NCBI GenBank assembly: GCA_964016885.1
Contig: OZ024754.1
Span: 24,304,001-24,368,000 of the forward strand
DNA length: 64,000 bases
Source: Eledone cirrhosa
Taxonomy: Eukaryota
Direction of reading: 5' to 3'
Positions 1 through 63,465 of the stretch are shown here, one piece after another. The notes under the pieces were generated by a model. That model saw only the letters and a list, made by a program, of their open reading frames with translations. It was not told where the DNA came from and ran no database searches. Position 1 is the stretch's first letter. Each line of letters starts with the position of its first letter. Both the position numbers and the translations under genes were made by a program.

Positions 1-3000
1 ACACCACCATTAACAACACCAACAACACACCACAATTAACAACACCACCAACAACACACCACCATTAACAACACCAACAACAACACACCACCATTAACAA
101 CACCAACAACAACACACCACCATTAATAACACCAACAACAACACACCACCATTAACAACAACAACAACAACAACACACCACTATTAACAACAACAACAAC
201 AATACACCACCATTAACAACAACACCAACAACAACACACCACCATTCATAACACCAACAACATACACCACCATTAACAACAACAACAACAACACACCACC
301 ATTAACAACACCAACAACAACACACCACCATTAACAACACTAACAACAACACTCGACTATTAACAACACCAATAACAACACACCGCCATTAACAACACCA
401 ACAACAACACACCACCATTAACAACACCAACAACAACACACCAACAACAACACCACCAACAACAACACACCACCATTAACAATAACAACACACCACCATT
501 AACACCACCAACAACACACCACCATTAACAATAACACCACCAATAACAACACACCACCATTAACAACACCAACAACAACACACCACCATTAACATCACCA
601 ACAACACACCACCATTAACAATAACACCACCAATAACAACACACCACCATTAACAACACCAACAACAAGACTCCACCATTAACAACACCCACAACAACAC
701 ACCACCATTAACAACACCAACAACAACAGACCACCATTAACAACACCAACAACACACACCACCATTAACAACACCAACAACAACAAACCACCAGTAACAA
801 GACCAATAACAACACACCACCATTAACAAGACCAACAACAACACACCACCATTAACAACAACACAACCAACAACAACAACACACCACCATTAACAACAAC
901 ACCACCAACAACAACACACCACCATTAACAACACCAACAACACACCACTAACAACAACACACCAACAACAACACCACCAACAACAACACACAACCATTAA
1001 CAACACCAACAACAACACACCACCATTAACAACACCAACAACAACACACCAACAACACACCACCAATAAAAACACACCACCATTAACAACACCAACAACA
1101 ACACACCACCATTAACAACACAAACAACACACCACCATTAACACCACTAACAACAACACACCAACAACAACACCACCAACAACAACACACCACCATTAAC
1201 AACACCAACAACAACACACCACCATTAATAACACCAACAACAACACACCACCATTAACAACACCAACAACACACACCACCATTAACAACACCAACAACAA
1301 CACACCACCATTAACAACACCAACAACAACACACCAACAACACACCACCAATAACAACACACCACCATTAACAACACCAACAAGAACACACCACCATTAA
1401 CAACACCAACAACAACAAATCACTATTAACAAGACCAACAATACACACCAACATTAACAACACCAACAACAAGACACCACCATTAACAACACCAACAACA
1501 ACACACTGCCATTAACAACACCAACAACAACAAACCACCAGTAACAACACCAACAACAACACACCACCATTAACAAGACCAACAACACACACCACCATTA
1601 ACAACACCCATAACAACACACCACCATTAACAACACCAACAACAACACACCACCATTAACAACACCAACAACACACCACCATTAACACCACTAACAACAA
1701 CACACCAACAACAACACCACCAACAACAACACACCACCATTAACAACACCAACAACACACACCACCATTAATAACACCAACAACAACACACCACCATTAA
1801 CAACACCAACAACACACACCACCATTAACAACACCAACAACAACACACCACCATTAACAACACCAACAACAACACACCAACAACACACCACCAATAACAA
1901 CACACCACCATTAACAACAACACAACGAACAACAACACACCACCATTAACAACACCAACAACACACCACCATTAACACCACTAACAACAACACACCAACA
2001 ACAACACCACCAACAACAACACACCACCATTAACAACACCAACAACAACACACCACCATTAACAACACCAACAATAACACACCACCATTAACAACACCAA
2101 CAACAACACACCACCATTAACAACACCAACAACAACACACCACCATTAACAACACCAACAACACACACCACCATTAACAACACCAACAACAACACACCAC
2201 CATTAACAACACCAACAACAACACACCACCATTAACAACACCAACAACAACACACCACCATTAACAACACCAACAACAACACACCACCATTAACAACACC
2301 AACAACAACACACCACCATTATCAACACCAACAACAACACACCACCATTAACAACACCAACAACACACACCACCATTAACAACACCAACAACAACACACC
2401 AACAACAACACCACCAACAACAACACACCACCATTAACAACACCAACAACACACTACCATTAACAACACCAACAACAACACACCACCATTAACAACACCA
2501 ACAATAACCCACCACCATTAACACCACCAACAACAACACACCACCATTAACAACACAAACAACACACCACCATTAACAACACCAACAACAACACACCACC
2601 ATTAACAACACCAACAACACACACCACCATTAACAACACCAACAACAACACACCAACAACAACACCACCAACAACAACACCCCACCATTAACAACACCAA
2701 CAACACACCACTATTAACAACACCAACAACAACACACCACCATTAACAACAACACAACCAATAACAACACACCACCATTAACAACACCAACAACACACCA
2801 CCATTAACACCACTAACAACAACACACCAACAACAACAACACCAACCACAACACAGCACCATTAACAACACCAACAACACACACACCACCATTAACACCA
2901 CTAACAACAACACACGAACAACACCACCACCAACAACAAAACACCACCAACAACAACACCCCACCATAAACAACAACAACAACAACACACCACCATTAAC

Positions 3001-6000
3001 CACAACAACAACAACACACCACCATTAACAACACCAATAATACACCACCATTAACAACACCAACAACAACACACCACCATTAACAACAACAACAACAACA
3101 CCACACCACCATTAACAACAACAACACACCACCATTAACACCACCAACAACACACCACCAATAACAACACACCACCATTAACAACACCAACAACAAGACA
3201 CCACCATTAACAACACCAACAACAACACACCACCATTAACAACACCAACAAAAAGACACCACCATTAACAACACCCACAACAACACACCACCATTAACAA
3301 CACCAATAACAACATACCACCATTAACAACACCAACAACAACACACCACCATTAACAACACCAATAACAACACGCCACCATTAACAACACCAATAACAAC
3401 ACACCACCATTAACAACACCCACAACAACACACCTCCATTAACAACACCAATAACAACACACCACCATTAACAACACCAACAACAACACACCACCATTAA
3501 CAACACCAATAACAACACACCACCATTAACAACACCAACAACAACACACCACCATTAACAACAGCAACAACAACACACCACCATTAACAACACCAACAAC
3601 AACACACCACCATTAACAACACCGACACCAACACACCAACAACAACACCACCAACAACAACACACCACCATTAATAACACCAACACACCAACAACAACAC
3701 CACCAATAACAACACACCACCATTAATAACACCAACAACAACACACCAACAACAACACCACCAACAACAACACACCACCATTAACACCACCAACAACAAC
3801 ACACCAACAACAACACCAGCAACAACAACACACCACCATTAACAACACCAACAACAACACACCGCCATTAACAACACCAACAACAACACACCACCATTAA
3901 CACCACCAACAACAACACACCAACAACAACACAACCAACAACAACACACCACCATTAACACCACCAACAACACCACACCACCATTAGCAACACCAAACCA
4001 ACACACCACCATTAACAACACCAACATCAACACACCACCATTAACAACACCAACAACAACACACCAACAACAACACACCACCATTAACAACACCAACAAC
4101 AACACACCACCATTAACAACACCAACAACACACCACCATTAACAACACCAACAACAACACACCACCATTAATAACACCAACAACAACACACCACCATTAA
4201 CAACAACAACAACAACAACACACCACCATTAACAACAACAACAACAATACACCATCATTAACAACAACACCAACAACAGCACACCACCATTCATAACACC
4301 AACAACATACACCACCATTAACAACAACAGTAACAACACACCACCATTAACAACACCAACAACAACACACCACCATTAACAACACTAACAACAAGACTCG
4401 ACTATTAACAACACCAATAACAACACACCGCCATTAACAACACCAACAACAACACACCACCATTAACAACACCAACAACAACACACCAACAACAACACCA
4501 CCAACAACAACACACCACCATTAACAATAACAACACACCACCATTAACACCACCAACAACACACCACCATTAACAATAACACCACCAATAACAACACACC
4601 ACCATTAACAACACCAACAACAAGACTCCACCATTAACAACACCCACAACAACACACCACCATTAACAACACCAATAACAACAGACCACCATTAACAACA
4701 CCAACAACAACACACCACCATTAACAACACCAACAATAAGACACCACCATTAACAGCACCAACAACAACACACCACCATTAACAACACCAAGAACAAGAC
4801 ACCACCATTAACAACACCAACAACAACACACCACCATTAACAACACCAACAACACACCACCATTAACAACACCACCAACAACACACCACCATTAACAACA
4901 CCAACAACAACACACCACCATTAACAACACCAACAACAACACACCACCATTAATAACACCAACAACAACACACCACCATTAACAACAACAACAACAACAA
5001 CACACCACCATTAACAACAACAACAACAATACACCACCATTAACAACAACACCAACAACAACACACCACCATTCATAACACCAACAACATACACCACCAT
5101 TAACAACAACAACAACAACACACCACCATTAACAACACCAACAACAACACACCACCATTAACAACACTAACAACAAGACTCGACTATTAACAACACCAAT
5201 AACAACACACCGCCATTAACAACACCAACAACAACACACCACCATTAACAACACCAACAACAACACACCAACAACAACACCACCAACAACAACACACCAC
5301 CATTAACAATAACAACACACCACCATTAACACCACCAACAACACACCACCATTAACAATAACACCACCAATAACAACACACCACCATTAACAACACCAAC
5401 AACAACACACCACCATTAACATCACCAACAACACACCACCATTAACAATAACACCACCAATAACAACACACCACCATTAACAACACCAACAACAAGACTC
5501 CACCATTAACAACACCCACAACAACACACCACCATTAACAACACCAACAACAACAGACCACCATTAACAACACCAACAACAACACACCACCATTAACAAC
5601 ACCAACAACAAGACACCACCATTAACAGCACCAACAACAACACACCACCATTAACAACACCAAGAACAAGACACCACCATTAACAACACCAACAACAACA
5701 CACCACCATTAACAACACCAACAACACACCACCATTAACAACACCACCAACAACACACCACCATTAACAACACCAACAACAACACACCACCATTAACAAT
5801 ACCAACAACAACACACCACCATCAACAACACCAACAACAACACACCACCATTATCAACACCAACAACAACACACCACCATTAACAAGATACCACCATTAA
5901 CAACACCAACAACGAGACACCACCATTAACAACACACCACCATTAACAAGAGACCACCATTAACAACACCAACAACGAGACACCACCATTAACAACACCA

Positions 6001-6335
6001 ACAAAAACACACCACCATTAACAACACCAACAACAACACACCACCATTAACAACAACACCACCAATAACAACACACCACCATTAACAACACCAATAACAA
6101 CAAACCACCATTAACAACAACAATAACAACACCAGTAACATCAGACCACCAATAACAACACCAATAACAACACCAATAACAACACACCACCAATAACAAC
6201 ACCAATAACAGCACCAATAACAACGCACCACCAATAACAACACCAATAACAACACCAATAACAACACACCACCAATAACAACACCAATAACAACAAACCA
6301 CCATTAACAACAACAACAACACCAATAACCACACT
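1..6335. repeat. Complex G-poor satellite, unit ~24-27 bp (caacaacacaccaccattaacaacac), with higher-order duplicated blocks
   Basis: Continuous tandem array. Rare variants recur in the same order: attcataac at ~245/4290/5071, ctcgactat at ~352/4397/5179, aagactcc at ~667/4622/5494. Confidence 0.95.
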
Positions 6336-20273: not shown

Positions 20274-20724
20274 TGGAAATACCACGGAAAATATATTTAC
20301 GGGTCTGTTTTTCTTTTTTTTTCCTTTCTTTGATTCGTCATAGTGACATTATTGAAAATATGAGGGGGACAATTCTTTTAAAAAAGAGTTTTATAAAGTA
20401 TATAAAGTATATAAAGTATAAACGGTTTCGATGTATTAGTAAAATTCATCTTATCAAATGTTGAGTATTACAATTAGAAAGAATTAATAAGAATTAAAAA
20501 CTAAAAATTAAAGATTTAAAATTAAGTGTGGGAGTAAGTTTTTTTCATCTTCCTTGTTGAGAAGGAGACTGGAAAACGAACTCTTGTGTATATAGAGAGA
20601 AGTGTAGTCATGGTAGTAGGTGTGTTTTTTCATGTTTTTTCATATATATATAAATGGCTTCGACATGACTAGAACTTTTTCATTCGAAAGAAGTCATCAG
20701 GAAAGCCAGGGCTTTCCTGATGAT

Positions 20725-20860
20725 TTACTTACGACGCCCGAAAGGTTGAAAGGCAAAGTTAACCTCGGCGAGATTTGAAATGAGAACGTAAAGGACCGTA
20801 ACAATATGCCACGAAGCATGTTGTCCGACGCTCTGTAGATACTACTAATCCACCGCCCTA
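20725..20860 (-). mobile_element. SINE family A (3'-truncated)
   Basis: gaaaggcaaagttaacctcggcgagatttgaa...tccgacgctct...aatccaccgccc. Confidence 0.85.
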
Positions 20861-24612: not shown

Positions 24613-25701
<1,089 letters not shown>

Positions 25702-25968
25702 CACACAGAAACAAAATGGCGTAGGACAGAACAAAGGAGAGGCACAGAAACAAAGAAAGGAATCCCCAGTCACTGAAGAGGTCACAGAGTGTGTGAAGAA
25801 AGAACTATGACTATATATAAACAACTATCTGGTTGTGGAACCAACCAACCAACCAACCAGAAATTTATAAATTTATAAATTTATTATAAATTTATTATAA
25901 TAAATTGAAGTGAAAGCATGAGTGCGTGTGTTTCTTATTGGCAACATGACCCTCCCAAAGTATGACAA
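25702..25968 (+). mobile_element. Hammerhead-bearing short element (family C) ending in (TA)n
   Basis: agtca-CTGAAGA-ggtcaca..tgtgaa-GAAAG-aa-CTA-tgact at 25768-25812, 3' end catgaccctcccaaagtatgacaata. Homologues at ~47036-47280 and ~63055-63465. Confidence 0.75.
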
Positions 25969-25980
25969 TATATATATATA

Positions 25981-35109: not shown

Positions 35110-35800
35110 AAAATTGAGAGGGCGCTTGCCCTGCTGGTCAGGGTGGCCGTGGTCTTTTGTGTGGTTTTCGCCACGAGTAACCCTCGGAGGTTTCCCCCCT
35201 ATTGGGGAATTTTTCATTGTTTAAATTTTCATTTTTATTGTTTATATATATATATATATATATGCTTCTATGTCTTTTTTTCTTTTTCGTTACATATATA
35301 AATAATAAAAATCTTTACACGCACAAAACCCACATCGTACCGTCCTGTCCCGTCATGTGCAGTCTGTAATGTTTTCTTGGTGTCAGCCCTTGTGGCCAAT
35401 AAAGAAATTAGAGAGGCAAGAATGGCCCGAGTGAATGGGCCTACTCTGAGTATGTGTCTGTAAATTAAAGGTGGAAAACTGGGAGAGGGCACTTGCCCTG
35501 GTGGTCAGGGTCACTGTGGCTTTTTAATGGGCTTTCTCCACGAATGTCCTTCGGAAGTCTCCCCCGTATTGGGGAATTTTTCATTGTTATTATTTTGTTA
35601 CATCCTCTGGTTTTGTTTTTTACACGCAGAAATGCCCATTTGTACCGTCCTGTAATAATAATAATAATAATAATAATACTTTCTTTATTAACCACAAGGG
35701 TTTACATAAAGTAGACATTAAGGACAGTACAGGACAATAGTCATATACTGTCCTTAATGTCTACTTTATGTAAACCCTTGTGGTTAATAAAGAAAGTATT

Positions 35801-35816
<16 letters not shown>
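35110..35816 (+). mobile_element. Two tandem LINE 3' ends (possibly L1/Tx1 clade); the second carries an inverted duplicate of its own terminus
   Basis: gagagggc.cttgccctg.tggtcagggt...tattggggaatttttcattgtt...cccttgtgg..aataaagaaa occurs twice. ORF end ARMARVNGPTLSMCL* at ~35415-35463. Another copy lies at 63885-64000 (minus). Confidence 0.65.
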
Positions 35817-35846
<30 letters not shown>

Positions 35847-35896: not shown

Positions 35897-35934
<38 letters not shown>

Positions 35935-35980
35935 AGATCAAAAGATGGTTAAAAAAACTCACCTCCTACATATATATATA

Positions 35981-38900
35981 TATATATGTGAATATAGACA
36001 TAGAATATTCGAAAATATTCTGTATGTTTATAATAAACATTTTGAAGACCTAATCGCTATAGAATAGAATACGTCACGTATTACAATTAGATTCTCGATA
36101 AAAGCAAGGGAAGTAATCTACGCGTTTCATTCTTGTTAGAAATCATCAGGACTACATATCCAGTGCTTTTATCGAGAATGACACAGCTAGAGACTTATAG
36201 AATACTTAGCTGTGTACAGGAACTGGTTTGAAAGAGCGGTTGCCGGTCCGGCAGAAATTAGAAATTGGAATAAATGCTCTGAAATAGCGATATATATGTG
36301 AATATAGACATAGAATATTCGAAAATATTCTGTATGTTTATAATAAACATTTTGAAGACCTAATCGCTATAGAATAGAATACGTCACGTATTACAATTAG
36401 ATTCTCGATAAAAGCAAGGGAAGTAATCTACGCGTTTCATTCTTGTTAGAAATCATCAGGACTACATATCCAGTGCTTTTATCGAGAATGACACAGCTAG
36501 AGACTTATAGAATACTTAGCTGTGTACAGGAACTGGTTTGAAAGAGCGGTTGCCGGTCCGGCAGAAATTAGAAATTGGAATAAATGCTCTGAAATAGCGA
36601 TATATATGTGAATATAGACATAGAATATTCGAAAATATTCTGTATGTTTATAATAAACATTTTGAAGACCTAATCGCTATAGAATAGAATACGTCACGTA
36701 TTACAATTAGATTCTCGATAAAAGCAAGGGAAGTAATCTACGCGTTTCATTCTTGTTAGAAATCATCAGGACTACATATCCAGTGCTTTTATCGAGAATG
36801 ACACAGCTAGAGACTTATAGAATACTTAGCTGTGTACAGCAACTGGTTTGAAAGAGCGGTTGCCGGTCCGGCAGAAATTAGAAATTGGAATAAATGCTCT
36901 GAAATAGCGATATATATGTGAATATAGACATAGAATATTCGAAAATATTCTGTATGTTTATAATAAACATTTTGAAGACCTAATCGCTATAGAATAGAAT
37001 ACGTCACGTATTACAATTAGATTCTCGATAAAAGCAAGGGAAGTAATCTACGCGTTTCATTCTTGTTAGAAATCATCAGGACTACATATCCAGTGCTTTT
37101 ATCGAGAATGACACAGCTAGAGACTTATAGAATACTTAGCTGTGTACAGGAACTGGTTTGAAAGAGCGGTTGCCGGTCCGGCAGAAATTAGAAATTGGAA
37201 TAAATGCTCTGAAATAGCGATATATATGTGAATATAGACATAGAATATTCGAAAATATTCTGTATGTTTATAATAAACATTTTGAAGACCTAATCGCTAT
37301 AGAATAGAATACGTCACGTATTACAATTAGATTCTCGATAAAAGCAAGGGAAGTAATCTACGCGTTTCATTCTTGTTAGAAATCATCAGGACTACATATC
37401 CAGTGCTTTTATCGAGAATGACACAGCTAGAGACTTATAGAATACTTAGCTGTGTACAGGAACTGGTTTGAAAGAGCGGTTGCCGGTCCGGCAGAAATTA
37501 GAAATTGGAATAAATGCTCTGAAATAGCGATATATATGTGAATATAGACATAGAATATTCGAAAATATTCTGTATGTTTATAATAAACATTTTGAAGACC
37601 TAATCGCTATAGAATAGAATACGTCACGTATTACAATTAGATTCTCGATAAAAGCAAGGGAAGTAATCTACGCGTTTCATTCTTGTTAGAAATCATCAGG
37701 ACTACATATCCAGTGCTTTTATCGAGAATGACACAGCTAGAGACTTATAGAATACTTAGCTGTGTACAGGAACTGGTTTGAAAGAGCGGTTGCCGGTCCG
37801 GCAGAAATTAGAAATTGGAATAAATGCTCTGAAATAGCGATATATATGTGAATATAGACATAGAATATTCGAAAATATTCTGTATGTTTATAATAAACAT
37901 TTTGAAGACCTAATCGCTATAGAATAGAATACGTCACGTATTACAATTAGATTCTCGATAAAAGCAAGGGAAGTAATCTACGCGTTTCATTCTTGTTAGA
38001 AATCATCAGGACTACATATCCAGTGCTTTTATCGAGAATGACACAGCTAGAGACTTATAGAATACTTAGCTGTGTACAGGAACTGGTTTGAAAGAGCGGT
38101 TGCCGGTCCGGCAGAAATTAGAAATTGGAATAAATGCTCTGAAATAGCGATATATATGTGAATATAGACATAGAATATTCGAAAATATTCTGTATGTTTA
38201 TAATAAACATTTTGAAGACCTAATCGCTATAGAATAGAATACGTCACGTATTACAATTAGATTCTCGATAAAAGCAAGGGAAGTAATCTACGCGTTTCAT
38301 TCTTGTTAGAAATCATCAGGACTACATATCCAGTGCTTTTATCGAGAATGACACAGCTAGAGACTTATAGAATACTTAGCTGTGTACAGGAACTGGTTTG
38401 AAAGAGCGGTTGCCGGTCCGGCAGAAATTAGAAATTGGAATAAATGCTCTGAAATAGCGATATATATGTGAATATAGACATAGAATATTCGAAAATATTC
38501 TGTATGTTTATAATAAACATTTTGAAGACCTAATCGCTATAGAATAGAATACGTCACGTATTACAATTAGATTCTCGATAAAAGCAAGGGAAGTAATCTA
38601 CGCGTTTCATTCTTGTTAGAAATCATCAGGACTACATATCCAGTGCTTTTATCGAGAATGACACAGCTAGAGACTTATAGAATACTTAGCTGTGTACAGG
38701 AACTGGTTTGAAAGAGCGGTTGCCGGTCCGGCAGAAATTAGAAATTGGAATAAATGCTCTGAAATAGCGATATATATGTGAATATAGACATAGAATATTC
38801 GAAAATATTCTGTATGTTTATAATAAACATTTTGAAGACCTAATCGCTATAGAATAGAATACGTCACGTATTACAATTAGATTCTCGATAAAAGCAAGGG

Positions 38901-39184
38901 AAGTAATCTACGCGTTTCATTCTTGTTAGAAATCATCAGGACTACATATCCAGTGCTTTTATCGAGAATGACACAGCTAGAGACTTATAGAATACTTAGC
39001 TGTGTACAGGAACTGGTTTGAAAGAGCGGTTGCCGGTCCGGCAGAAATTAGAAATTGGAATAAATGCTCTGAAATAGCGATATATATGTGAATATAGACA
39101 TAGAATATTCGAAAATATTCTGTATGTTTATAATAAACATTTTGAAGACCTAATCGCTATAGAATAGAATACGTCACGTATTAC
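35981..39184 (-). repeat. Left arm of 310-bp hammerhead satellite (retrozyme-like): 10 full units plus a partial unit, ribozyme on minus strand
   Basis: Unit start tatatatgtgaatatagaca at 35981, 36291, 36601 ... 39081. First minus-strand HHR at 36113-36155. Confidence 0.97.
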
Positions 39185-42100
39185 CAGTTCCTGTACACAG
39201 CTAAGTATTCTATAAGTCTCTAGCTGTGTCATTCTCGATAAAAGCACTGGATATGTAGTCCTGATGATTTCTAACAAGAATGAAACGCGTAGATTACTTC
39301 CCTTGCTTTTATCGAGAATCTAATTGTAATACGTGACGTATTCTATTCTATAGCGATTAGGTCTTCAAAATGTTTATTATAAACATACAGAATATTTTCG
39401 AATATTCTATGTCTATATTCACATATATATCGCTATTTCAGAGCATTTATTCCAATTTCTAATTTCTGCCGGACCGGCAACCGCTCTTTCAAACCAGTTC
39501 CTGTACACAGCTAAGTATTCTATAAGTCTCTAGCTGTGTCATTCTCGATAAAAGCACTGGATATGTAGTCCTGATGATTTCTAACAAGAATGAAACGCGT
39601 AGATTACTTCCCTTGCTTTTATCGAGAATCTAATTGTAATACGTGACGTATTCTATTCTATAGCGATTAGGTCTTCTAAATGTTTATTATAAACATACAG
39701 AATATTTTCGAATATTCTATGTCTATATTCACATATATATCGCTATTTCAGAGCATTTATTCCAATTTCTAATTTCTGCCGGACCGGCAACCGCTCTTTC
39801 AAACCAGTTCCTGTACACAGCTAAGTATTCTATAAGTCTCTAGCTGTGTCATTCTCGATAAAAGCACTGGATATGTAGTCCTGATGATTTCTAACAAGAA
39901 TGAAACGCGTAGATTACTTCCCTTGCTTTTATCGAGAATCTAATTGTAATACGTGACGTATTCTATTCTATAGCGATTAGGTCTTCAAAATGTTTATTAT
40001 AAACATACAGAATATTTTCGAATATTCTATGTCTATATTCACATATATATCGCTATTTCAGAGCATTTATTCCAATTTCTAATTTCTGCCGGACCGGCAA
40101 CCGCTCTTTCAAACCAGTTCCTGTGCACAGCTAAGTATTCTATAAGTCTCTAGCTGTGTCATTCTCGATAAAAGCACTGGATATGTAGTCCTGATGATTT
40201 CTAACAAGAATGAAACGCGTAGATTACTTCCCTTGCTTTTATCGAGAATCTAATTGTAATACGTGACGTATTCTATTCTATAGCGATTAGGTCTTCAAAA
40301 TGTTTATTATAAACATACAGAATATTTTCGAATATTCTATGTCTATATTCACATATATATCGCTATTTCAGAGCATTTATTCCAATTTCTAATTTCTGCC
40401 GGACCGGCAACCGCTCTTTCAAACCAGTTCCTGTACACAGCTAAGTATTCTATAAGTCTCTAGCTGTGTCATTCTCGATAAAAGCACTGGATATGTAGTC
40501 CTGATGATTTCTAACAAGAATGAAACGCGTAGATTACTTCCCTTGCTTTTATCGAGAATCTAATTGTAATACGTGACGTATTCTATTCTATAGCGATTAG
40601 GTCTTCAAAATGTTTATTATAAACATACAGAATATTTTCGAATATTCTATGTCTATATTCACATATATATCGCTATTTCAGAGCATTTATTCCAATTTCT
40701 AATTTCTGCCGGACCGGCAACCGCTCTTTCAAACCAGTTCCTGTACACAGCTAAGTATTCTATAAGTCTCTAGCTGTGTCATTCTCGATAAAAGCACTGG
40801 ATATGTAGTCCTGATGATTTTTAACAAGAATGAAACGCGTAGATTACTTCCCTTGCTTTTATCGAGAATCTAATTGTAATACGTGACGTATTCTATTCTA
40901 TAGCGATTAGGTCTTCAAAATGTTTATTATAAACATACAGAATATTTTCGAATATTCTATGTCTATATTCACATATATATCGCTATTTCAGAGCATTTAT
41001 TCCAATTTCTAATTTCTGCCGGACCGGCAACCGCTCTTTCAAACCAGTTCCTGTACACAGCTAAGTATTCTATAAGTCTCTAGCTGTGTCATTCTCGATA
41101 AAAGCACTGGATATGTAGTCCTGATGATTTCTAACAAGAATGAAACGCGTAGATTACTTCCCTTGCTTTTATCGAGAATCTAATTGTAATACGTGACGTA
41201 TTCTATTCTATAGCGATTAGGTCTTCAAAATGTTTATTATAAACATACAGAATATTTTCGAATATTCTATGTCTATATTCACATATATATCGCTATTTCA
41301 GAGCATTTATTCCAATTTCTAATTTCTGCCGGACCGGCAACCGCTCTTTCAAACCAGTTCCTGTACACAGCTAAGTATTCTATAAGTCTCTAGCTGTGTC
41401 ATTCTCGATAAAAGCACTGGATATGTAGTCCTGATGATTTCTAACAAGAATGAAACGCGTAGATTACTTCCCTTGCTTTTATCGAGAATCTAATTGTAAT
41501 ACGTGACGTATTCTATTCTGTAGCGATTAGGTCTTCAAAATGTTTATTATAAACATACAGAATATTTTCGAATATTCTATGTCTATATTCACATATATAT
41601 CGCTATTTCAGAGCATTTATTCCAATTTCTAATTTCTGCCGGACCGGCAACCGCTCTTTCAAACCAGTTCCTGTACACAGCTAAGTATTCTATAAGTCTC
41701 TAGCTGTGTCATTCTCGATAAAAGCACTGGATATGTAGTCCTGATGATTTCTAACAAGAATGAAACGCGTAGATTACTTCCCTTGCTTTTATCGAGAATC
41801 TAATTGTAATACGTGACGTATTCTATTCTATAGCGATTAGGTCTTCAAAATGTTTATTATAAACATACAGAATATTTTCGAATATTCTATGTCTATATTC
41901 ACATATATATCGCTATTTCAGAGCATTTATTCCAATTTCTAATTTCTGCCGGACCGGCAACCGCTCTTTCAAACCAGTTCCTGTACACAGCTAAGTATTC
42001 TATAAGTCTCTAGCTGTGTCATTCTCGATAAAAGCACTGGATATGTAGTCCTGATGATTTCTAACAAGAATGAAACGCGTAGATTACTTCCCTTGCTTTT

Positions 42101-43174
42101 ATCGAGAATCTAATTGTAATACGTGACGTATTCTATTCTATAGCGATTAGGTCTTCAAAATGTTTATTATAAACATACAGAATATTTTCGAATATTCTAT
42201 GTCTATATTCACATATATATCGCTATTTCAGAGCATTTATTCCAATTTCTAATTTCTGCCGGACCGGCAACCGCTCTTTCAAACCAGTTCCTGTACACAG
42301 CTAAGTATTCTATAAGTCTCTAGCTGTGTCATTCTCGATAAAAGCACTGGATATGTAGTCCTGATGATTTCTAACAAGAATGAAACGCGTAGATTACTTC
42401 CCTTGCTTTTATCGAGAATCTAATTGTAATACGTGACGTATTCTATTCTATAGCGATTAGGTCTTCAAAATGTTTATTATAAACATACAGAATATTTTCG
42501 AATATTCTATGTCTATATTCACATATATATCGCTATTTCAGAGCATTTATTCCAATTTCTAATTTCTGCCGGACCGGCAACCGCTCTTTCAAACCAGTTC
42601 CTGTACACAGCTAAGTATTCTATAAGTCTCTAGCTGTGTCATTCTCGATAAAAGCACTGGATATGTAGTCCTGATGATTTCTAACAAGAATGAAACGCGT
42701 AGATTACTTCCCTTGCTTTTATCGAGAATCTAATTGTAATACGTGACGTATTCTATTCTATAGCGATTAGGTCTTCAAAATGTTTATTATAAACATACAG
42801 AATATTTTCGAATATTCTATGTCTATATTCACATATATATCGCTATTTCAGAGCATTTATTCCAATTTCTAATTTCTGCCGGACCGGCAACCGCTCTTTC
42901 AAACCAGTTCCTGTACACAGCTAAGTATTCTATAAGTCTCTAGCTGTGTCATTCTCGATAAAAGCACTGGATATGTAGTCCTGATGATTTCTAACAAGAA
43001 TGAAACGCGTAGATTACTTCCCTTGCTTTTATCGAGAATCTAATTGTAATACGTGACGTATTCTATTCTATAGCGATTAGGTCTTCAAAATGTTTATTAT
43101 AAACATACAGAATATTTTCGAATATTCTATGTCTATATTCACATATATATCGCTATTTCAGAGCATTTATTCCA

Positions 43175-43176
<2 letters not shown>
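39183..43176 (+). repeat. Right arm of 310-bp hammerhead satellite: ~12.9 units, ribozyme on plus strand
   Basis: aaaccagttcctgtacacag at 39491, 39801 ... 42901 is the reverse complement of the left-arm unit. The arm ends at ...ttattccaat and runs into (AT)n. Confidence 0.97.
39255..39297 (+). ncRNA. Minimal type I hammerhead ribozyme (one of 23 copies, repeated every 310 bp)
   Basis: Helix I gtagtc/gattac, CTGATGA 39261-67, helix II ttct-aaca-agaa with U.U at its base, GAAAC 39282-86, palindromic helix III ACGCGT, cleavage after GTA 39289-91. Helix I is extended by a perfect 16-bp pair, 39231-39246/39304-39319. Confidence 0.93.
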
Positions 43177-43222
<46 letters not shown>

Positions 43223-53834: not shown

Positions 53835-55189
53835 TGGTTGTGAGAGTAGATTGAAAGAGAGACATAGAGAGAGGGAAAGGAGAATGGAAGAGAGAGAGAG
53901 AGAGAGCTTGTGGTGATCACAGACACCCACATACACACACAGACCCCCCCCCCCCACACACATATATATATATATGTATACAAACACACACATTTATATA
54001 TATACATATTTATATACATTGGCCTTCCAGTTTCATTTCACATTATATACTTGTCTGTTTAATTATTTAAAAATTATCATATAAGTGAATATGATTTTAA
54101 AAAAATATTTTGAAGGGAACGTGACCCAACGGGTGGTCAAGTAAAATATAAAAATAACACCTCAACCTATAATAACAAAGTACAACGATATGATTGGTGT
54201 AATGCAAGCCAACTACAGAAGAAACGACCGAACGAGCAATATTTCATTAGTTGATACGTACTGCTACTTTAGACCATGACTTTCTGAATGGCACGCCTAA
54301 TTACAAAATTGCCTTGAATCTTTTAGTAATGTGGCCCACCGTATGAACCACATCCTATATTGCCTAATGCTCGAAAAAAAGGTTGCCAATGCTTGCTTGA
54401 GACACTACCCGTGGGAAGCCAACTCAGTGCTGATGGTGGTGAGTAGGGAGGTGGCAAATAAATAAACACTTCTAGCGACACAGATTAGCAAAAAGAGCAT
54501 AGCCATTTTCAGAGAGAGAGAGAGAAAATCCTTCACTCCAGTACTGGATTGGATGAAATTCAAAGTTGATCTTGGTGGGATTTGAACTGAAAGTGCAGAG
54601 ATTGAAGGAATAACGTAAAGCATTCTGTCGACGTCCTAATGACTCAGCCAAATCACTGCCTCTACGGATTATAGGATATGAAAATTTAAAAAATGATATA
54701 CAGGTAAACAACAGCGAAGTTAATCAGTGGAAAACAGCAGAACGAACGAATCAGCATATGAAACGACGTTCACCATAGACAACTACTTCATTATAAACCA
54801 GCCAATGGAGACAATAGCCTTAGGCAATACAATGAACCCACTCTGTTGAATATAAAACTAACCTGAAGCTCGTCAGATAACACTCCTGTCTGAGGTGGTA
54901 GTGGTAGTAAAGGCCATTGTAATAGTAGTATTAGTGGTGATTAGTGGCAACGATGGAATAGGGGGTTGCGGTGTAGTAGTGGTATAAGTGATTATGGTAT
55001 TAGTGGTGGTGTGTGTAGAAGTGGTAGTAGGGGATGGTGGGTGTGTTATAGGTGATGGTGGTAATAAAGGTGATTATAGAAGTAGTAATGGTGGTGATAG
55101 TGGTAGTATAGGTCATTGTTATAGTAGTGGTGGGGTGTATGTAGAAATGTTGATAATGTTTGGGGGTGGATGTATAGATGGTGGTTGTG

Positions 55190-56150
55190 GTAGTGGTATG
55201 ACGGGGGTGAAGGTGATGGTAGTAGTGGTATGACGGGGGTGAAAGTGGTGGTAGTAGTGGTATGACGGGGGTGAAGGTTGTGGTGGTAGTAGTGGTATGA
55301 CGGGGGTGAAGGTGGTGGTAGTAGTGGTATGGCGGGGGTGTAGGTAGTGGTAGTAGTGGTATGACGGGGGTGTAGGTGGTGGTAGTAGTGGTATGACGGG
55401 GGTGAAGGTGGTGGTAGTAGTGGTATGGCGGGGGTGTAGGTAGTGGTAGTAGTGGTATGACGGGGGTGTAGGTGGTGGTAGTAGTGGTATGGCGGGGGTG
55501 TAGGTAGTGGTAGTAGTGGTATGGCGGGGGTGTAGGTAGTGGTAGTAGTGGTATGACGGGGGTGTAGGTGGTGGTAGTAGTGGTATGACAGGCGTGAAGG
55601 TGGTGGTAGTAGTGGTATGACGGGGGTGTAGGTGGTGGTAGTAGTGGTATGACGGGGGTGAAGGTGGTGGTAGTAGTGGTATGACGGGGGTGAAGGTGGT
55701 GGTAGTAGTGGTATGACGGGGTGTAGGTGGTGGTAGTAGTGGTATGGCGGGGGTGTAGGTAGTGGTAGTAGTGGTATGACGGGGGTGTAGGTGGTGGTAG
55801 TAGTGGTATGACGGGGTGTAGGTGGTGGTAGTAGTGGTATGGCGGGGGTGTAGGTGGTGGTAGTAGTGGTATGACGGGGTGTAGGTAGTGGTAGTAGTGG
55901 CATGACGGGGGTGAAGGTGGTGGTAGTAGTGGTATGACGGGGGTGTAGGTGGTGGTAGTAGTGGTATGACGGGGGTGTAGGTGGTGGTAGTAGTGGTATG
56001 ACGGGGGTGTAGGTGGTGGTAGTAGTGGTATGACGGGGGTGAAGGTGGTGGTAGTAGTGGCATGACGGGGGTGAAGGTGGTGGTAGTAGTGGCATGACGG
56101 GGGTGAAGGTGGTGGTAGTAGTGGTATGACGGAGGTGAAGGTAGTGGTAG
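55190..56150. repeat. G-rich ~32-bp minisatellite (ggtatgacgggggtgtaggtggtggtagtagt)
   Basis: Tandem units; these generate the spurious Pro/His/Thr-rich ORFs on the minus strand. Confidence 0.95.
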
Positions 56151-56319
56151 TAGTGATAGTGGATGTGGAAATGGTGGTAGTGGTGGTGGGGATGGTGTGG
56201 TATTGGTGGAAGGTGATATGTAGATGATGGTTGCGGAGATATGACAGTGGAGGTGGTTGTAGTAGTGAGAGTGGTGAGGGGTGTTGGTAGGGGATTTGGA
56301 AGTAATGGTGATGATAGGT

Positions 56320-57949
56320 GTAGAGTGGTGGTAGTGGTGGTAGTTGTAGTAGTGGTGGTAGTTGTGGTAGTGGTGGTAGTGGTGGCAGTTGTCTTAGTTG
56401 TAGTAGTGGTGGTAGTTGTGATAGTGGTGGTAAGGGTGGCAGTTATCGTAGTTGTAGTAGTGGTGGTAGTTGTGATAGTGGTGGTAGTGGTGGCAGTTGT
56501 AGTAGTTGTAGTAGTGGTGGTAGCTGTGATAGTGGTGGTAGTGGTGGCAGTTGTAGTAGTTGTAGTAGTGGTGGTAGGTGTGATAGTGGTGGTAGTGGTG
56601 GCAGTTGTAGTAGTTGTAGTAGTGGTGGTAGCTGTGATAGTGGTGGTAGTGGTGGCAGTTGTAGTAGTTGTAGTAGTGGTGGTAGGTGTGATAGTGGTGG
56701 TAGTGGTGGCAGTTGTAGTAGTTGTGATTGTGATAGTGATGGTAGTTGTGGTAGCGGCGGTAGTGGTGGCAGTTGTAGTAGTTGTAGTAGTGGTGGTAGT
56801 TGTGATAGTGGTGGTAGTGGTGGCAGTTGTCGTAGTTGTAGTAGTGGTGGTAGTTGTGATAGTGGTGGTAGTGGTGGCAGTTGTCGTAGTTGTAGTAGTG
56901 GTGGTAGTTGTGGTAGTGGTGGTAGTGGTGGCAGTTGTCGTACTTGTAGTAGTGGTGGTAGTTGTGGTAGTGGTGGTAGTTGTGATAGTGGTGGTAGTTG
57001 TGGTAGTGGTGGTAGTGGTGGCAGTTGTCGTAGTTGTAGTAGTGGTGGTAGTTGTGGTAGTGGTGGTAGTGGTGGCAGTTGTCGTAGTTGTAGTAGTGGT
57101 GGTAGTTGTGGTAGTGGTGGTAGTGGTGGCAGTTGTCGTAGTTGTAGTAGTGGTGGTAGTTGTGGTAGTGGTGGTAGTGGTGGCAGTTGTCGTAGTTGTA
57201 GTAGTGGTGGTAGTTGTGGTAGTGGTGGTAGTTGTGATAGTGGTGGTAGTGGTGGCAGTTGTCGTAGTTGTAGTAGTGGTGGTAGTTGTGGTAGTGGTGG
57301 TAGTGGTGGCAGTTGTCGTAGTTGTAGTAGTGGTGGTAGTTGTGATAGTGGTGGTAGTTGTGATAGTGGTGGTAGTTGTGGTAGTGGTGGTAGTGGTGGT
57401 AGTGGTGGCAGTTGTCGTAGTTGTAGTAGTGGTGGTAGTTGTGGTAGTGGTGGTAGGTATAGAAGTGACAGTAGTGGTGGTAGTTGTGGTAGTGATGGTA
57501 GGTATAGAAGTGACAGTAGTGGTGGTAGTTGTGGTAGTGGTGGTAGGTATAGAAGTGACAGTAGTGGTGGTAGTGGTGGTAGGTATAGAAGTGACGGTAG
57601 TGGTGGTAGTTGTGGTAGTTGTGGTAGTGGTGGTAGTGGTGGTAGTGGTGGTAGTGGTGGTAGTGGAGGTAGTGGTGGTAGTTGTGGCAGTGGTGGTAGT
57701 GGTAGCAGTTGTCGTAGTTGTAGTAGTGGTGGTAGTTGTGATAGTGGTGGTAGTTGTGGTAGTGGTGGTAGTTGTGATAGTGGTGGCAGTTGTCGTAGTT
57801 GTAGTAGTGGTGGTAGTTGTGGTAGTGGTGGTAGTGGTGGTAGTGGTGGCAGTTGTCGTAGTTGTAGTAGTGGTAGTGGTGGATGAAAGGTGAAAAAATA
57901 TTGCTAGTAGGGGAAACAGCTGAATAAACAGAAAAATACAGTAATTTTG

Positions 57950-58008
<59 letters not shown>

Positions 58009-58024
58009 GGTGGTGGTGGTGGTG

Positions 58025-58086
<62 letters not shown>

Positions 58087-58123
58087 AGTAGTAGTAGTAG
58101 TAGTGGTAGTAGTAGTAGTAGTA

Positions 58124-58191
<68 letters not shown>

Positions 58192-58198
58192 GGTGGTG

Positions 58199-58260
<62 letters not shown>

Positions 58261-58297
58261 AGTAGTAGTAGTAGTAGTGGTAGTAGTAGTAGTAGTA

Positions 58298-58349
<52 letters not shown>

Positions 58350-58471
58350 GAGTAGTAGTAGTGGTAGTGGTAGTAGTAGTAGTAGTGGTGGTGGTGGTGG
58401 TGGTGGTGGTGGTGGTGGTGGTGGTAGTGGTAGTAGTAGTAGTAGTAGTAGTAGTGGGAGTAGTAGTAGTG

Positions 58472-58503
<32 letters not shown>

Positions 58504-58540
58504 AGTAGTAGTAGTAGTAGTGGTAGTAGTAGTAGTAGTA

Positions 58541-58590
<50 letters not shown>
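56320..58590. repeat. GTN-triplet satellites ((gta)n/(gtg)n/(gtt)n with longer-period units)
   Basis: Source of the poly-Val ORFs. Confidence 0.95.
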
Positions 58591-58594
<4 letters not shown>

Positions 58595-58857
58595 ATGGTG
58601 GTGGTGGTGTTTGTTGTTGTCGGAGGTGGTGGGAATGGTGGCGATAGTAGTAGTGTAGTGGTTTTTGTCGTAGTTGGTGGTGTTGGTGGTGGTAGTGGTG
58701 GTAGTGGTGATAGTTATGGTGTTGGTGGTGTTGGTGGTGGTAGTGGTGGTAGTGGTGATAGTTATGGTGTTGGTGGTGTTGGTGGTGGTAGTGGTGGTAG
58801 TGGTGGTAGTGGTGATAGTTATGGTGTTGGTGGTGTTGGTTGTAATATGACGGTTAG

Positions 58858-59402
58858 GATGGGTGTAGGGTGGGGTTAGGTTGCGACGATGGGTGTAGGG
58901 TGGGGTTAGGTTGCGACGATGGGTGTAGGGTGGGGTTAGGTTGGGTGTAGGGTGGGGCTAGGTGGGTGTAGGGTGGGGTTAGGTTGCGACGATGGGTGTA
59001 GGGTGGGGTTAGGTTGGGTGTAGGGTGGGGCTAGGTGGGTGTAGGGTGGGGTTAGGTTGGGTGTAGGGTGGGGCTAGGTGGGTGTAGGGTGGGGTTAGGT
59101 TGCGACGATGGGTGTAGGGTGGGGTTAGGTTGCGACGATGGGTGTAGGGTGGGGTTAGGTTGCGACGACGGGTGTAGGGTGGGGCTAGGTTGCGACGACG
59201 GGTGTAGGGTGGGGTTAGGTTGGGTGTAGGGTGGGGCTAGGTGGGTGTAGGGTGGGGTTAGGTTGCAACGATGGGTTTAGGGTGGGGCTAGGTTGGGTGT
59301 AGGGTGGGGCTAGGTGGGTGTAGGGTGGGGCTAGGTTGGGTGTAGGGTGGGGCTAGGTGGGTGTAGGGTGGGGCTAGGTTGCAACGATGGGTGTAGGGTG
59401 GG
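58858..59402. repeat. G-rich minisatellite gggtgtagggtgggg(t/c)taggtt(gcgacgat)
   Basis: Tandem 21-30 bp units with closely spaced GGG/GGGG runs. Confidence 0.93.
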
Positions 59403-59453
59403 ATTAGTTATGACAGTAGTGATGGAATGATGATGAGGATGATGATAGTAATG

Positions 59454-59611
59454 ATAATTGTTTCTACTTTAGGCACAAGGCCAGCAATTAACCAGTACAT
59501 TACTGGTACTTTATTTTATCGACCCCGTAAGGATGAAAGGCAAAGTTAACCTCGGTGGGATTTGAACTCAGACCGCAAAGGGACGTAACTATGCTGGAAA
59601 GCATGGCATCC
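59454..59611 (-). mobile_element. SINE family A, 5'-truncated
   Basis: Matches 12029-12187 and ends at gcatggcatcc. Confidence 0.9.
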
Positions 59612-60422
59612 TGATGATAATGCCAAGGTATTGGTGATGGTGTTAGTAGAAGTGGTGATGGTAGTGATGATGATAATGCCAAGGTATTGGTGATGGTGTT
59701 AGTAGAAGTGGTGATGGTAGTGATGATGATAATGCCAAGGTATTGGTGATGGTGTTAGTAGAAGTGGTGATGGTAGTGATGATGATAATGGCGAGGTATT
59801 GGTGATGGTGTTAGTAGAAGTGGTGATGGTAGTGATGATGATAATGCCAAGGTATTGGTGATGGTGTTAGTAGAAGTGGTGATGGTAGTGATGATGATAA
59901 TGCCAAGGTATTGGTGATGGTGTTAGTAGAAGTGGTGATGGTAGTGATGATGATAATGCCAAGGTATTGGTGATGGTGTTAGTAGAAGTGGTGATGGTAG
60001 TGATGATGATAATGCCAAGGTATTGGTGATGGTGTTAGTAGAAGTGGTGATGGTAGTGATGATGATAATGCCAAGGTATTGGTGATGGTGTTAGTAGAAG
60101 TGGTGATGGTAGTGATGATGATAATGCCAAGGTATTGGTGATGGTGTTAGTAGAAGTGGTGATGGTAGTGATGATGATAATGGCGAGGTATTGGTGATGG
60201 TGTTAGTAGAAGTGGTGATGGTAGTGATGATGATAATGGCGAGGTATTGGTGATGGTGTTAGTAGAAGTGGTGATGGTAGTGATGATGATAATGGCGAGG
60301 TATTGGTGATGGTGTTAGTAGAAGTGGTGATGGTAGTGATGATGATAATGGCGAGGTATTGGTGATGGTGTTAGTAGAACTGGTGATGGTAGTGATAGAA
60401 TGATGATGATAATGGCGAGGTA
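59612..60422. repeat. 56-bp minisatellite, ~14 copies, two variants (gccaagg / ggcgagg)
   Basis: tgccaagg at 59621, 59677, 59733 and onward, period 56. Confidence 0.95.
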
Positions 60423-63054: not shown

Positions 63055-63465
63055 ATATTGTTATATTGTTATACTTTGGGAGGGTCATATTGCCAATAAG
63101 AAACACACGCACCAGTTGCTTTCACTTCAATTTATTATATATTTATAAATTTATAAATTCACAAATCTACAAACTTATAAATTTCTGGTTGGTTGGTTGG
63201 TTCCACAACCAGATAGTTGTTTATATATAGTCATAGTCCTTTCGTCACACACTCTGTGACCTCTTCAGTGACTGGGGATTCCTTTCTTTGTTTCTGTGCC
63301 TTTCCTTTCTTCTATCCTACGCCATTTTGTTTCTGTGTGTGTGTTGTGTGCTCAGTTTGCGCATGCGCCACATCCGGGTGTCTATTTGTTTATTTATTTA
63401 TTTGTTTATTGTTGGTGCGTGTATTGGCGTGTATTGGCAACATGACCCTCCCAAAGTATAACAAT
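63055..63465 (-). mobile_element. Family C hammerhead element with an inverted second 3' end
   Basis: Minus-strand HHR agtca-CTGAAGA-g-GTCACA-gagtg-TGTGAC-GAAAG-ga-CTA-tgact (63229-63273). The terminus tgaccctcccaaagtataacaata faces outward at both ends. Confidence 0.8.

Follow-up and report, generated by a model that had tools for sequence, protein, structure and literature searches.

How animal retrozymes move is a question of which enzyme mobilises them and of whether their RNA circle is the real template. It is raised here by a 310-bp tandem unit of about 34% GC, arranged as two arms, in a 64,000-nucleotide stretch of the Eledone cirrhosa genome (contig OZ024754.1 of assembly GCA_964016885.1, positions 24,304,001 to 24,368,000), referred to below as the window. 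Observations on array anatomy, covariation, array ends and haplotypes indicate that this element is probably a non-autonomous non-LTR retrozyme mobilised by a Penelope-type element (PLE), with a circular template copied from both target ends. Transcription, cleavage, the use of dimers, circularisation, the ligase and the PLE partner are the parts of this reading that we infer.

The two arms of the repeat point away from each other. The left arm (35980..39184, minus strand) runs leftwards for 10.3 units, with its 5' end at unit position 35 and its 3' end, the short end, at unit position 139. The right arm (39183..43176, plus strand) comprises 12.9 units, with its 5' end at unit position 202 and its 3' end, the long end bearing a tail, at position 165. 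They diverge from a 2-nt overlap (AC) at the head-to-head junction, 39183..39184, and are bordered by remnants of an (AT)n target that can be read in the sequence at 35970..35979, where the remnant continues into the unit's own ATATATAT, and at 43177..43198. On the plus strand, the short-end site lies at 39421..39430 (unit positions 130-139), where ATATATAT matches the target, and is followed by the tail up to the long-end site (39431..39456); the two sites are the putative first and second starts of reverse transcription. Sixteen of the 21 full units in the window are identical to the reference and the other five carry one base difference each. The hammerhead core and helices are present in all 21, one of them with a change in helix II.

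This organisation agrees with what is described for non-LTR retrozymes: tandem non-coding units within the 150-450 bp range, GC content under 50%, one hammerhead per unit and dispersed multicopy occurrence. Metazoan examples such as axolotl Rtz_331 and Rtz_353 share with the present element tandem units of 170-400 nt, low GC, a type I hammerhead and a predicted self-paired circle (PMC7229834). The ribozyme, assigned to type I from its sequence, its alignment to Rfam HH9 and covariation, occupies 39255..39297 on the plus strand. It consists of helix I (39255-60/39292-97), the CUGAUGA core (39261-67), helix II with a U.U at its base (39268-81), GAAA (39282-85) and a palindromic ACGCGU (39285-90), and cleavage, predicted to follow GUA at 39291, would release a 310-nt monomer spanning 39292..39601. 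The HH9 match is marginal (E 0.061, below the gathering score), Rfam at gathering thresholds gives no match in the window, and no antisense ribozyme was seen, the Rfam-level match being confined to one strand. Helix III consists of one A-U pair closing the palindromic CGCG loop, and two copies of the ACGCGU motif form a computed duplex of -9.5 kcal/mol. A one-pair helix III with a palindrome is the dimer-type design of animal hammerheads (PMC4209133; PMC7229834), found with a palindromic tetraloop in axolotl HHR_Amex1, and the U.U at the base of helix II recurs in HHR_Amex2 (PMC7229834). The predicted monomer fold gives helix III a probability of about 0 and helix II one of 0.33-0.45, and on this model the ribozyme core seems to need a second copy. 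In three loci of the family (L101, L103 and L110), an extra C stands two bases past the predicted ligation site, fixed in all full units.

An earlier note on this DNA had described the monomer as a viroid-like design, made largely of hairpins and clamping its own ends together. Its five stems are perfect reverse complements, all on the plus strand: a hairpin with a 9-bp outer stem (39195..39229), the 16-bp clamp that extends helix I (39231..39246 with 39304..39319), and hairpins at 39328..39342, 39389-39408 and 39467..39479 (5 bp). The stem at 39328-42, exact as a reverse complement, could not close over its proposed 1-nt loop and folds instead as 6 bp with a 3-nt loop. Circular folding of 39292-39601 reaches -67.8 kcal/mol against -47.0 +/- 4.5 in 300 dinucleotide shuffles (z -4.7; lowest shuffle -66.2 kcal/mol), as the note had expected. 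Unit positions 29-249, which leave out the ribozyme and the clamp, still give z -2.5, with 1 of 150 shuffles as low. The abundance of hairpins was overstated, since the paired fraction of the circle is 0.60 against 0.55 +/- 0.035 in shuffles, and that of the linear form is 0.57 against 0.53, a value reached by 13 of 100 shuffles. Low energy combined with an ordinary paired share means that the unit contains a few strong helices and is not rod-like. The loop of the 39389-39408 hairpin had been read as a UUCG tetraloop; this was rejected on the sister-family sequences, because the loop is closed by U-A and is replaced by GCCA or AUYA in those families, so that it is not a conserved tetraloop.

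Folding energy was likewise rejected as proof of RNA function, because the antisense circle folds even lower (-77.9 kcal/mol) and energy alone cannot pick out the RNA strand. This result suits the view that the repeat is an ordinary satellite spread by unequal crossing-over, in which the stems would be DNA palindromes and the inversion a local rearrangement or an assembly fold-back. Perfect inverted repeats can alternatively arise by template switching. Comparison of homologous copies bears on the matter, since the same genome holds two older homologous families: B (283 exact core matches, 63% identity to the window's family, A) and C (70% identity).

A MAFFT alignment fitted to no structure was made of 16 copies (5 of 30 family A spans, 5 of 7 from B and 6 of 8 from C). 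In it, 88% of clamp cells pair and two-sided changes are seen in 5 of 16 pairs. None of 500 shuffles reaches the paired share or the covariation score, and slid registers pair at 40-56%, while the count of two-sided clamp pairs as such is reached by 227 of the 500. Among family majorities for 48 pairs, a count that excludes three stems aligning out of register, pairing is preserved in 12 of 13 distinct two-sided changes; the 10 one-sided changes give G.U on the plus strand in seven cases, break the pair in three and never produce A.C. A larger set assembled with no folding filter retained 101 of 110 segments (nine were dropped for low identity or gaps in anchor columns), and 1115 of its 1212 clamp cells pair (92%), against 44-55% in slid registers. 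A 17-row set gives 193 of 204 clamp cells paired, a figure that is biased, as a list preselected by folding energy supplied 13 of the 17 rows. In the ribozyme core, pair 3:8 is C:G in 6 of 17 rows, U:A in 10 and broken in one, a covariation previously described in PLE hammerheads (PMC4209133).

The remaining stems behave unevenly. The 39467-79 hairpin is paired in 99% of cells across families with zero two-sided changes. The 39195-229 hairpin pairs in register in 75% of cells, its place kept and its sequence partly replaced, and the 39328-42 hairpin is out of register, with 35% of cells paired in its inner four pairs; in families B and C, both places form hairpins whose sequences differ. A domain at 39350..39436 (plus strand), closed by a nearly invariant ATAGCG/CGCTAT stem, contains the 39389-39408 hairpin and the short-end site, and unit positions 131-154 show the highest between-family conservation (88-96%). 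Selection on RNA structure, which the earlier note had suggested from the density of stems, is thus supported, since the clamp, both helix I and helix II, the C3:G8 core pair and the 39389-39408 hairpin all covary across families. The number of independent events is small, as each compensatory change counts as one and the families are few. Other families with quite different clamp sequences were also found in the genome.

The clamp raises the further possibility of a viroid-like RNA, in which the helices hold the 5'-OH and the cyclic phosphate together for self-ligation, perhaps with RNA-to-RNA replication. The strong conservation of the clamp speaks for such a function, and the proposed clamping of the ends was borne out for the 5' end: in the fold of the cleaved monomer, G1 lies in helix I with a pair probability of 0.99. 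The 3' end fares differently, as its last 11 nt are mostly unpaired (unpaired probability 0.55-1.0) since helix III amounts to a single pair and a palindrome. With the partner of G1 lying 31 nt before the 3' end and helix III absent from the predicted fold, the reactive ends would be tethered nearby rather than held together. Self-ligation of published retrozymes amounts to 3% in axolotl and 1% in mussel, against over 80% and about 30% with RtcB (PMC7229834). On these models, the most plausible role of the clamp is that of an extended helix I, which would tether the ends for a protein ligase and steady the ribozyme.

Hammerhead viroids (Avsunviroidae) are of similar size, and their multimers are likewise cut by a ribozyme and ligated by host enzymes. 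The present element differs in being DNA-encoded, with thousands of genomic copies, in bearing a ribozyme on one strand only and in being about 60% paired, and it would spread by reverse transcription. Three sequencing runs labelled as other organisms (X2, X5 and X6) hold the unit as a closed 310-nt cycle with zero differences, in closed 340-nt contigs at a depth of 10-15, as a viroid-like RNA might appear. The contigs of these runs and of run X1 are of unrecorded kind, a tandem DNA array collapses to a closed cycle just as a circle does, and no RNA run is among the sequencing runs listed as holding the unit. The unit in these three runs may be carried-over DNA or RNA. Taken with the free 3' end, the low self-ligation and the one-stranded ribozyme, this makes a self-ligating, viroid-like RNA very unlikely. 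The label 'viroid-like' holds as a resemblance: the element is a genomic retroelement, and self-paired circles have already been published for its class, as has RtcB ligation, so that the folding of the unit is real but already known.

More distinctive is the way in which the arrays are inserted. The genome contains 4581 exact matches to the 32-nt core and a further 4046 cores that differ at position 10.1, where all 100 among the matches listed have A; this brings the family to about 8,600 near-identical, dispersed units. Twenty-three loci were compared, namely the window, the first 10 loci listed for the exact core and the first 12 for the core with the changed base. Two arms are present in 19 of them, always in the order minus then plus (19/19), and the four single-armed loci include one that is masked on its 5' side. 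In each of the 19 two-armed loci, the end of one arm falls within unit positions 126-139 and that of the other within 154-170, most often at 165. The common spacing of these ends is 26-35 nt, given as a range because the short end is ambiguous within ATATATAT. The target is (TA)n in 21 of 23 loci and AT-rich DNA in the other two; a target-site duplication is not readable in (TA)n. The same pairing of short and long ends recurs in 19 of 23 simple two-armed loci of family B, drawn from 41 loci in a set whose layout is biased (19 overlapping loci were dropped and half were found by an inverted query), and in 5 of 6 simple two-armed loci of family C, among 29. In sequencing run X1 the ends recur as a loose (AT)n end.

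These features correspond to the insertion marks of endonuclease PLEs, which comprise an inverted 5'-truncated copy, a tail of 30-40 bp at one end and a bias to (TA)n (PMC8557442). All are found here: an inverted 5'-truncated arm in 19 of 23 loci, a tail at one end in all 19 two-armed loci and a (TA)n or AT-rich target. The purified anole PLE protein (element PAc) cuts both strands of AT-rich DNA and extends them, and its RT initiates at two internal sites on the RNA; the spacing of these sites equals the tail, and they lie downstream of a type I hammerhead as in the present unit (PMC11167929). In contrast to PLEs, the present element lacks a coding frame, its 310-nt unit is the whole element, and each arm holds many perfect units. 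Nor does it resemble any of the PLE terminal repeats examined. A parallel is offered by Chlamys elements such as MRC1, which are non-coding PLE dependants with multicopy head-to-tail insertions; most Chlamys are described as lacking hammerheads, whereas the ribozyme of the present element is conserved (PMC8557442).

The same anatomy weighs against a satellite origin. Local duplication does occur, as visible in locus L036, where a two-unit variant pattern recurs 7 units apart, which implies that arrays also grow in this way, and the arms are joined exactly through the clamp in two of the 19 loci (L034 and L102), where it has an effect on the DNA as well. A rearrangement or fold-back is contradicted by a junction that is not a mirror, by flanks that differ, and by an orientation and end pairing that recur at 19 dispersed loci. 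At the RNA level, the excess of G.U over A.C in clamp cells on the plus strand (105 against 40 in the unfiltered set) and the covariation of the core 3:8 pair point the same way. The satellite reading is largely refuted and is the least probable of those considered here, with hardly any weight left to it.

Haplotypes bear on the nature of the template. Fourteen haplotypes were found in 20 loci, each fixed locus-wide over up to 20 units and both arms, and wherever both arms contain full units (13 loci), they share the same fixed haplotype, which in 9 of these loci is other than that of the window. The 5' ends of the arms are scattered, with one of 42 lying within 5 nt of the cut; since they ignore the cleavage site, the template was continuous across it for many rounds. 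The best explanation of the haplotype and 5'-end pattern is one RNA circle copied repeatedly. The same PLE machinery could instead have used an uncleaved linear multimer from a uniform source array, with the ribozyme and clamp inherited and circles a side product or absent. A uniform parent array would yield a uniform daughter, the modelled ribozyme looks weak, and the anole RT, which starts internally, had unprocessed RNA as its main template in vitro, hammerhead cleavage being unnecessary (PMC11167929), so that the enzyme can do without a circle. Yet new variants would then have to pass through one unit to become fixed, and 14 haplotypes are each fixed locus-wide. Ribozyme covariation also persists across families, and positions 4 and 6 of helix I are altered in 3 and 11 scattered single units, respectively, and never in whole arrays. 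A linear template therefore appears unlikely, if clearly less so than the viroid-like or satellite readings.

With a circle as the template, the proposed cycle would begin with transcription of an array into a multimer, which the type I hammerheads would cut into 310-nt units, probably as dimers formed through the ACGCGU palindrome. The clamp would stabilise the ribozyme and keep the ends close, and a host ligase of the RtcB type would close the circle. The RT-endonuclease of a PLE would then cut both strands of (TA)n and prime at two internal sites separated by about 30 nt, so that the same circle would be copied round and round from each target end. The two cDNAs, joined at a short match, would give head-to-head arms of one haplotype.

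One variant suggests a further step. A276G, which lies in helix I and gives UAG, is found in 612 units, with G in 99 of 100 among the matches listed. Its blocks take in whole loci and are found with either allele of position 287 and on at least four backgrounds, and G is also common at the corresponding place in family B. A-to-I editing prefers a UAG context, and the pattern fits either recurrent editing of this kind on the template or a tolerated wobble spread by recombination. It is conceivable, at somewhat less than an even chance, that each locus is the DNA print of one circle, rolling-circle copied from both ends of a PLE break, and that some circles were A-to-I edited first. If so, the arrays would provide direct genomic evidence of a Penelope-type RT using circular templates and writing RNA edits into DNA, and the conserved domain at unit positions 59-165 would be the landing site of that RT.

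PLEs have been named as candidate mobilisers of animal retrozymes (PMC7229834), and a 2026 preprint (10.64898/2026.07.22.740005) argues from phylogeny and co-occurrence and favours local amplification of terminal repeats. The words inverted, tail and microsatellite do not occur in the main text of PMC7229834 (Cervera and de la Pena 2020), whereas the present loci show such anatomy. The literature searched, which covered main texts and few subscription journals, yielded no description of a two-armed, tailed, (TA)n-targeted anatomy for retrozymes. The window's family is an unusually young and informative retrozyme family, in which almost all loci bear PLE-type insertion marks and every locus has a single haplotype. 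The two start sites and the conserved domain named here could be tested with purified PLE protein.

A partner was sought among the PLEs of the same genome, which is rich in such elements and holds 10,597 GIY-YIG candidates, including a frame that combines RT and GIY-YIG. None of the 50 GIY-YIG loci examined (30 + 20, from 150 scored matches of the candidates) or of 34 tail-motif loci contains a PLE with sequence likeness to the unit. One PLE, at L203:1473-7515, has an open frame of 938 aa for RT + GIY-YIG, flanked by terminal repeats about 1070 bp long, and ends in (TA)n, this end falling at an internal TA match of its own. A family B copy beside a PLE in L072 was rejected as a partner link, since it has its own (TA)n ends. 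Matches at L208:184, L212:7144 and L221:4265, considered as homologues of PLE terminal repeats, were also rejected because they belong to another short hammerhead family. That family occurs in 3 of 20 PLE loci, is inverted in (TA)n at L212 and L221, and has a helix II resembling that of the window's family.

Several further observations concern array structure and the surrounding DNA. In L037:1899-2170, 272 bp of unrelated sequence separate the two arms. At L154:1030-1930, units of families C and B stand head to tail in one array, which implies that templates of different families can be switched within one insertion. Left of the window's array, a short piece at 35932-35969 is flanked by two (AT)n runs, and its first 10 bases also follow the (TA)n of a family B locus (L172); on this comparison, limited to 10 bases, the array may be located at one end of another repeat. 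Further left, 35655-35820 forms a long fold-back with (TAA)n on both sides, alike in divergent layout and different in sequence. Two CTGATGA hammerhead-like cores lie back to back on opposite strands at 20640-20760, and the one on the minus strand terminates in (TA)n. Copies of a repeat that contains a hammerhead-like motif, CTGAAGA...GAAAG, and terminates in (AT)n are present at 25690-25980 and near 63268 (minus strand), and this repeat also forms an inverted insertion in L221. Long minisatellites with strong strand skew and units of 29, 32, 9 and 56 bp occupy positions 1-6255 and 55180-60400 of the window.
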